Of a DNA stretch of 53,120 nucleotides, positions 34,270 through 35,401 are shown piece after piece. Origin of the DNA: Escherichia coli (GTDB taxonomy: Bacteria > Pseudomonadota > Gammaproteobacteria > Enterobacterales > Enterobacteriaceae); the NCBI RefSeq assembly GCF_003334255.1, contig NZ_QOWU01000036.1; one strand, written 5' to 3'. Position numbers and translations under genes: made by a program. Numbering within the stretch: the stretch's first letter is position 1; every line of letters begins with the position of its first letter. The notes under the pieces are model-generated. The model was given only the letters and a program-made list of their open reading frames with translations, was not told the DNA's origin and searched no databases.

Positions 34270-34405
34270 TACTTGCTCCCTTTGCTGGGCCAATATGAGG
34301 GCAGAGAACGATCTGCCTGATGTTTTTCATTGTGATCGCCAGCGCCCTGGCTCTCAATGCTCATTTCTGCCAATGTCTTGCCTATTTCTCCAGAGTGCTG
34401 GAGAA

Positions 34406-35362
34406 ATGCTACAAAATTGCGCACAATCAAATTGCCGCATTATTCCTAAGAAATTACGCGATATGAAACGTGAAGAGATTTGCCGCTTGCTGGCGGATAA
34501 AGTTAATAAACTGAAAAATAAAGAAAATAGTTTGTCAGAACTGTTGCCCGATGTGCGTTTGTTGTATGGCGAGACGCCTTTCGCACGTACACCGGTGATG
34601 TACGAGCCTGGCATCATAATTCTCTTTTCCGGGCATAAAATCGGTTATATCAATGAACGCGTGTTTCGTTATGATGCCAATGAATACCTGCTGCTGACGG
34701 TGCCGTTGCCGTTTGAGTGCGAAACCTATGCCACGTCAGAGGTGCCGCTGGCAGGGTTGCGTCTCAATGTCGATATTTTGCAGTTACAGGAACTGTTGAT
34801 GGACATTGGCGAAGATGAGCATTTCCAGCCGTCGATGGCAGCCAGCGGGATTAACTCCGCCACGTTATCAGAAGAGATTTTATGCGCGGCGGAGCGGTTA
34901 CTCGACGTGATGGAGCGACCACTGGATGCGCGTATTCTCGGCAAACAGATCATCCGCGAAATTCTGTACTACGTGCTGACCGGACCTTGCGGCGGCGCGT
35001 TACTGGCGCTGGTCAGTCGCCAGACTCACTTCAGTCTGATTAGCCGCGTGCTGAAACGGATTGAGAATAAATACACCGAAAACCTGAGCGTCGAGCAACT
35101 GGCGGCAGAAGCCAACATGAGCGTATCGGCGTTCCACCATAATTTTAAGTCTGTCACCAGTACCTCGCCGTTGCAGTATTTGAAGAATTACCGTCTGCAT
35201 AAGGCGCGGATGATGATCATCCATGACGGCATGAAGGCCAGCGCAGCAGCGATGCGCGTCGGCTATGAAAGCGCATCGCAATTTAGCCGTGAGTTTAAAC
35301 GTTACTTCGGTGTGACGCCGGGGGAAGATGCGGCAAGAATGCGGGCGATGCAGGGGAATTAA
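34406..35362 (+). CDS. yqhC: AraC-family transcriptional activator of yqhD
   Basis: ORF 34235..35362 trimmed to [13 protein letters not shown] (318 aa); C-terminal AraC HTH; divergent from yqhD. Confidence 0.9.
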
Positions 35363-35401
35363 ATACGTTCCCGGTACAGCAACCGGGAACGGGGAAAATC
35401 G

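Follow-up and report, generated by a model that had tools for sequence, protein, structure and literature searches.

The window analysed here, a 53,120-nucleotide stretch of DNA, covers the yqhD/yqhC region of the Escherichia coli chromosome in reverse orientation relative to K-12. [quoted passage not shown] Pfam domains PF12833, PF00165 and PF06719 (AraC_N) were identified in YqhC. A search of NCBIfam returned AraC-family HTH matches only, and no YqhC-specific model able to fix the N-terminus was found in that collection. Positions x of the K-12 genome (NC_000913.3) were converted to window coordinates as 34406 - (x - 3155218), and versions.2 and.3 of that genome differ by 1978 bp at this locus. 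The published antisense intragenic sigma54 motif GTGGCATAGGTTTCGCA falls on its sequence at 34718-34734 on the minus strand, inside yqhC and pointing towards yqhD, which confirms both the mapping and the offset.

The spacer between yqhD and yqhC was the sole YqhC peak in genomic SELEX, which makes YqhC a single-target regulator, and it also contains the strongest YqhC peak in ChIP-exo. In EMSA, YqhC bound a probe spanning 34270-34420. These assays place YqhC in the spacer at a resolution coarser than the palindrome described below. The ChIP-exo peak (3153318-3153348 in version.2) converts to 34298-34328, around the yqhD +1 and off the palindrome.

Table 1. Features of the yqhD/yqhC region, in window coordinates.
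Feature	Position	Strand	Basis or remark
dkgA	32174-33001	minus	
yqhD, NADPH-dependent aldehyde reductase, divergent target gene	33106-34269	minus	
yqhD sigma70 promoter: -35 TTGAGA (34357-34352), -10 CACAAT (34334-34329), start ~34322	34329-34357	minus	promoter scan; conserved
Conserved yqhD control block	34351-34392	minus	direct repeat; conservation in 81 genomes; layout kept in L083/L084
Box P, GGCAGAAATGAGCA	34371-34358	yqhD strand	abuts yqhD -35
Box D, TGGAGAAATAGGCA	34392-34379	yqhD strand	
Palindrome, left arm, ATTTCTCCAG	34384-34393		promoter-distal end of conserved box D
Palindrome, loop/spacer, AGTG	34394-34397		sequence unconstrained
Palindrome, right arm, CTGGAGAAAT	34398-34407		CTGGAGAA invariant; holds predicted yqhC -35 TGGAGA (34399-34404)
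Predicted yqhC sigma70 promoter: -35 TGGAGA (34399-34404), 17-bp spacer, -10 CACAAT (34422-34427), start ~34434	34399-34427	plus	
ATG of the K-12 yqhC annotation (318 aa)	34406-34408	plus	probably neither genuine nor conserved start
yqhC CDS from conserved start, 299 aa, AraC/XylS-family activator with AraC_N domain	34463-35362	plus	PGAP; ortholog lengths, alignment, Pfam

A repeat finder located a perfect inverted repeat of 24 bp in the spacer, ATTTCTCCAG-AGTG-CTGGAGAAAT (34384-34407), consisting of two 100% complementary arms of 10 nt (34384-34393 and 34398-34407) and a 4-nt loop. Its centre, at 34395.5, is approximately -73 relative to the yqhD start. The preliminary description of the region had reported TTCTCCAG-AGTG-CTGGAGAA at 34386-34405, immediately before an ATG at 34406. 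That sequence is present as described, but the full repeat is longer, and its right arm reaches into this ATG, covering its A and T. A Markov-1 simulation and an analytic estimate predict only about 0.3 perfect inverted repeats per 53-kb window for arms of at least 10 nt and a loop length of 3-8 nt; therefore, the palindrome is not a chance occurrence. Eleven such repeats were observed in the window, as is usual for real genomes. One is located in the yqhD-dkgA spacer (33022-33045, CTCACCGGAG, 4-nt loop), and another, at 35366-35391, separates the convergent genes yqhC and yghB and probably terminates transcription in both directions; further perfect inverted repeats with arms of at least 10 bp are found at 6263, 8010, 17356, 28372, 39045, 42848, 49407 and 52980. 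A reading of the yqhC palindrome itself as an intrinsic terminator or attenuator was rejected, as no T-run follows 34407 and the terminator scan was silent there.

The palindrome is the 24-bp element already described for the yqhD/yqhC control region. The putative YqhC target given by Frazão et al. (PMC6115493) is a 'SoxS-like sequence and a 24-bp palindrome', and a second paper (PMC10991953) describes the predicted YqhC binding sequence as a 24-bp palindrome of two 10-bp repeating units, citing Lee 2010. The yqhC-yqhD palindrome is credited in this literature to Lee et al. 2010 and Turner et al. 2011. The published element and the one found here share the two 10-bp inverted units, the 4-bp spacer and the location in the yqhD promoter region next to yqhC, with no structural difference between them. 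The exact sequence of the RegulonDB YqhC site was not found in the TF-survey papers and their supplements. To this description, the present analysis adds unequal constraint on the two arms, the coincidence of the right arm with a -35-like hexamer conserved for yqhC, and an adjoining ATG that differs from the conserved start; these points may already have been made in Lee 2010 and Turner 2011.

Variation within E. coli is uninformative, since a 61-nt stretch is at least 99% identical in 4,527 of 5,413 genomes. The palindrome was compared over 81 Enterobacteriaceae loci (81 genomes), which were aligned by anchoring on the conserved yqhC ATG and contain 59 distinct 24-mers. Two regions of these loci are nearly invariant. 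The first is a block at 34351-34391, where nearly every position carries at least 1.6 bits; after a free gap (34392-34397), it is followed by an invariant island at 34398-34405. A free stretch (34407-34418) then leads to a conserved GCGCACAAT at 34419-34427. The arms of the palindrome are thus divided between two conserved elements. Within the right arm, the segment C34398-A34405 is invariant among the distinct sequences except for A34404 (55/59), and CTGGAGAA is invariant across the 81 loci. In the left arm, TTTCT (34385-34389) is invariant or nearly so, and positions 34392-34393, the partners of C34398 and T34399, vary freely. The loop has all four bases at most positions and a low information content. 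What is kept at fixed spacing in almost all 81 genomes is the core TTTCTCC-N8-GGAGAAA.

The preliminary description had proposed that the palindrome, as RNA, folds into a stem-loop that sequesters the yqhC Shine-Dalgarno sequence. Under this model, the yqhC mRNA would begin upstream of 34384, and the hairpin would hide GGAGA and the AUG at 34406, throttling or gating translation. If transcribed, the E. coli hairpin is stable (-12.5 kcal/mol, z = -5.2), although this is trivially true of any perfect 10-bp palindrome, and the pairing is not accompanied by covariation. Compensatory double changes were found at 0 of the 10 stem pairs among the 59 distinct sequences, and uncompensated disruptions are frequent: the innermost pair (pair 10) is mismatched in 30 of the 59, pair 9 in 10, pair 7 in 8 (in Citrobacter, by an uncompensated C to A change) and pair 1, formed with the T of ATG 34406, in 42. 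The consensus fold of 20 representative sequences, for which the first five unpaired columns were filled from the consensus, has an energy of only -1.1 kcal/mol with 0 of 6 pairs covarying. No Rfam 15 family was matched over 34200-34600 apart from a chance mir-72 match (E = 0.99). Judged from these alignments, the palindrome does not evolve like an RNA stem.

The comparative data also bear on the start codon that such a hairpin would control. K-12 annotates ATG 34406 as the yqhC start, and a GFP fusion at this ATG with the native upstream region was expressed (Merchel Piovesan Pereira), both in line with the RNA model, as is the promoter activity found upstream of 34407. In RefSeq/PGAP genomes, however, yqhC starts at ATG 34463 (299 aa), and 34372-34432 carries no annotation in thousands of genomes. 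Of the 81 orthologous loci, only 10 have ATG at the codon corresponding to 34406, and 58 have an in-frame stop between that codon and the conserved ATG; even within Escherichia, strain E69 has ATA in its place together with an in-frame TGA. YqhC orthologs outside Escherichia are 299 aa long (some 305 aa), and their alignment begins at M20 of the E. coli protein. Within Escherichia, the 19 codons from 34406 to 34463 show 1 synonymous versus 6 distinct nonsynonymous differences, the ATA and TGA of E69 among the latter, compared with a synonymous to nonsynonymous ratio of about 6:1 in the next 300 codons of yqhC, and the 57 nt before ATG 34463 are more conserved than the coding region itself. This is the signature of non-coding regulatory DNA.

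A Shine-Dalgarno sequence usually lies 5-9 nt from its start codon. The GGAGA noted in the preliminary description is indeed part of the right arm, but as a Shine-Dalgarno sequence it would be misplaced, only 1 nt from ATG 34406 (2 nt for the GGAG core). Before ATG 34463, E. coli has only a weak SD-like TAAGAAAT, and most other genera have GGAG there. On this comparative evidence, 34463 is favoured and ATG 34406 is probably not the true yqhC start; the apparent Shine-Dalgarno sequence and the ATG would be by-products of the conserved GGAGAAA being followed by TG in Escherichia. The palindrome resembles known 5'-UTR hairpins that sequester a ribosome binding site, such as RNA thermometers and translational operators, in having a stable stem whose 3' arm contains GGAG and AUG; it differs from them in its AUG, which is not that of the conserved start, in an SD spacing of 1-2 nt, in the absence of covariation and in a likely transcription start downstream of it. 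With a non-conserved ATG followed by codons that evolve as non-coding DNA, the sequestration model is not supported, and we regard it as very improbable. YqhC database entries of 355 and 375 aa (P0001, P0002 and P0004) are over-extended ORFs that run from 34235 through the control region.

The right arm can be read as part of a promoter. In 81 of 81 genomes, TGGAGA is followed after exactly 17 bp by a hexamer with invariant A2 and T6. This hexamer has the form CAnnnT, with AACAAT in 3 genomes (CACAAT in 41, CACACT in 22, CACTAT in 6, and others), and in 79 of 81 its end lies 35 nt ahead of the conserved ATG. TGGAGA-17-CACAAT mirrors the TTGAGA-17-CACAAT of yqhD, and we read it as the native yqhC promoter, with a start predicted from these hexamers at ~34434 and a 5' UTR of ~29 nt. 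The predicted start likely lies ~27 nt downstream of the palindrome. With transcription beginning at ~34434, the palindrome and ATG 34406 would both be upstream of the transcript. TGGAGA and CACAAT each match the consensus at 4 of 6 positions and fall under the promoter-scan threshold; such weakness is what one expects of a promoter that depends on an activator. The -10 regions of the two promoters, 34325-34334 and 34422-34431, are 90% identical inverted copies (TTTCATTGTG and CACAATCAAA), such that the two divergent promoters are mirror images about 34378, a centre different from that of the palindrome. On the yqhD strand, the left arm also reads TGGAGA. A promoter towards yqhD from this hexamer was rejected, because the hexamer 17 bp downstream is CAGAAA and has no T6.

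No experimental yqhC start site was found in the literature: the entries listed for E. coli and Klebsiella in the tables of Kim 2012 hold nothing for this spacer, the zero of Reg-Seq is arbitrary, and the DARSI preprint gives no coordinates. The Reg-Seq zero corresponds to 34362 of the window, and its mutagenised region (~34247-34407) ends before the predicted yqhC -10.

The left arm belongs to a different element. It forms the outer end of the conserved block of ~40 bp and is continuous with box D, one of two boxes that constitute a direct repeat (TGCTCATTTCT and TGCCTATTTCT, boxes D and P) at a distance of 21 bp; the proximal box ends at 34358, beside the yqhD -35. Two boxes with the proximal one at the target -35 are an arrangement typical of dimeric AraC-type activators. 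The yqhD hexamers TTGAGA and CACAAT are quoted from Lee 2010 in PMC6115493. The left arm also matches the box TTGCCyAATCCT of distant YqhC relatives. In relatives with 49-52% identity, CTTGCCyAATCCT is kept on the regulator strand, and in a relative with 57% identity a non-divergent Fe-ADH gene is preceded by GAATAGGCAAAACACGGGCAGCTTCGTGCATTGAAGA-N17-CACAAT. No inverted copy like the right arm was found in the distant YqhC-family loci (49-57% identical) that were examined. In the 57%-identical case, a metagenome contig (L083), the yqhD-like Fe-ADH gene precedes the regulator gene, both pointing the same way, and the Fe-ADH promoter keeps the E. coli-like layout box-box-TTGAAGA-N17-CACAAT.

Additional regularities were observed on the yqhD side of the spacer. 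On the yqhD strand, GGCA, GGCA and AGCA occur at 34382-79, 34371-68 and 34361-58, upstream of the yqhD -35. Their 11-bp interval is one helical turn, as expected for successive major-groove contacts by the HTH pairs of an AraC-type protein. The yqhD 5' leader contains an inverted repeat, GGCAGA-N6-TCTGCC (34299-34318, minus strand), located ~5-24 nt into the mRNA and under the YqhC ChIP-exo peak. Unlike the palindrome, this repeat changes its stem between genera while its pairing is kept (GACAGG/CCUGUC, GGCGGUGA/UCAUCGCC). A U-run follows it in many genera, and it has a terminator-like score on the plus strand. Possibly it acts in the yqhD leader as a hairpin or attenuator, or else blocks transcription arriving from inside yqhD.

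The layout of the spacer has parallels in AraC/XylS divergent regions such as araC-araBAD, where the I1-I2 direct repeats abut the -35, and rhaSR-rhaBAD, which has inverted half-sites; these systems are drawn from established knowledge. As in those regions, the regulator gene is divergent from its target, two similar boxes lie ~21 bp apart with the proximal one at the target -35, and the spacer that both genes share probably also serves autoregulation of the regulator. The present region would be set apart by an inverted partial third box over the regulator's own -35, which we infer for yqhC. YqhC also differs from AraC in its sensor domain, which is AraC_N (PF06719) rather than the AraC arabinose-binding domain. 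With class I/II marbox promoters of MarA, SoxS and Rob, the region shares GCA-containing boxes that recur at 11-bp intervals upstream of the yqhD -35, and part of the YqhC site is called 'SoxS-like' in PMC6115493. YqhC is a two-domain, single-target regulator, in contrast to the monomeric global regulators MarA and SoxS. Membership in the marbox group was rejected, since the 20-bp consensus, fitted by eye, gave no convincing register.

The alternative at the DNA level is that the palindrome is a symmetric operator, whose arms are equivalent half-sites of one dimeric protein. The -35 match in the right arm would then be incidental, and the yqhC promoter would lie elsewhere. The bound protein could be YqhC, as the literature supposes, or another regulator, for example one behind the reported CRP and GlaR effects; CRP or GlaR itself as the binder was set aside, the sequence being unlike the CRP consensus. 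The perfect 10-bp dyad, its conserved core at fixed spacing, the published proposal of the palindrome as YqhC target and the restriction of YqhC to this spacer in genomic SELEX are all compatible with an operator, and reporters that lack the predicted -10 are still active. True half-sites, however, would be expected to be alike, whereas the right arm is invariant over 8-9 bp and the partners of C34398 and T34399 are free. A long asymmetric block, kept in relatives lacking the right arm, runs on without a break from the left arm, and the invariant 17-bp spacing to CAnnnT is left unexplained. Additionally, the YqhC ChIP-exo peak lies elsewhere, and Reg-Seq found no repressor-like feature over the palindrome (+22 to +45). 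We consider a symmetric operator unlikely.

The reporter data indicate a further promoter. In Reg-Seq, expression of the yqhC reporter depended on 34362-34382 (0 to +20) in all conditions; this '-10' feature narrowed in LB to +9 to +13, at CAATGT. The region also has an activator-like character in Reg-Seq, and DARSI equated it with the RegulonDB YqhC activator sites. The GFP fusion of Merchel Piovesan Pereira, which carries 34191-34405, was active, and more so in constitutive yqhC mutants; such mutants raise yqhC expression. Thus, YqhC-related expression was seen with two reporters whose upstream regions stop at 34405-34407, short of the predicted -10, and at least one further E. coli promoter must lie upstream of or inside the palindrome. 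A candidate is the extended -10-like TGcCAATGT (34368-34376), which is present only in the clade of Escherichia, Citrobacter and Salmonella.

If TGcCAATGT served as a promoter in this clade, the transcript would begin at ~34383-34384 and carry the palindrome as a 5'-terminal hairpin, which might mask the spurious SD and AUG, stabilise the message, or both, with translation at 34463. The coincidence of the Reg-Seq '-10' feature with CAATGT points in this direction, and TGCCAATGT and the full inner CCAG/CTGG pairing are confined to the same clade. CAATGT agrees with the -10 consensus at just 2 of its 6 bases, albeit the two key ones. In most genera the critical -11 position is occupied by G, and the bases of CAATGT are also part of the conserved YqhC block, so that the Reg-Seq signal may represent activator binding. 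This clade-specific hairpin appears to us improbable. In its fullest form, the second promoter would be YqhC-dependent and start the mRNA exactly where the left arm begins; the hairpin would bury the spurious SD and AUG (34400-34408), direct ribosomes to 34463 and/or protect the 5' end, and the same 24 bp would act as DNA (YqhC box and -35) and as RNA. To this elaborated version, too, we would assign little probability.

Our preferred interpretation, which we hold with somewhat better than even confidence, is that the palindrome is a DNA-level composite of the back-to-back yqhD and yqhC promoters and not an RNA structure. The unequal conservation of the arms, the fixed spacings, the lack of conservation of ATG 34406 and the absence of covariation are observed in the alignments; the protein that contacts each arm and the yqhC start are deduced from them. 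In the composite, the left arm would be the outer end of the two-box block at which dimeric YqhC switches on yqhD-dkgA. The right arm, 8 bp beyond the box, would repeat the inner end of that box in inverted orientation and carry the yqhC -35 TGGAGA; yqhC transcripts are predicted to start at ~34434 and to be translated from ATG 34463. As a copy of the YqhC box, the right arm probably also allows YqhC to contact or neighbour RNA polymerase at the yqhC promoter, which would result in autoregulation. The preliminary description had also suggested that the palindrome could be a DNA operator of the divergent region. That suggestion agrees with the conservation pattern and with the literature, in which the palindrome already figures as a candidate site for YqhC.

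These findings leave the general principles of gene regulation unchanged. They concern a system in wide use, as yqhD and YqhC are employed in aldehyde biosensors and in the engineering of tolerance to furfural, glyoxal and vanillin. If the analysis is right, the K-12 yqhC annotation (318 aa) is probably 19 codons too long, and the native yqhC promoter probably lies partly inside the K-12-annotated coding sequence. Published reporters ending at 34405-34407 would then omit the yqhC -10; as the Reg-Seq/DARSI window and the GFP reporter stop at the annotated ATG, what they indicate about yqhC promoter architecture may apply to a secondary promoter. For the redesign of sensors, the palindrome would have to be treated as two non-equivalent DNA elements. 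The composite probably couples activation of yqhD with autoregulation of yqhC.
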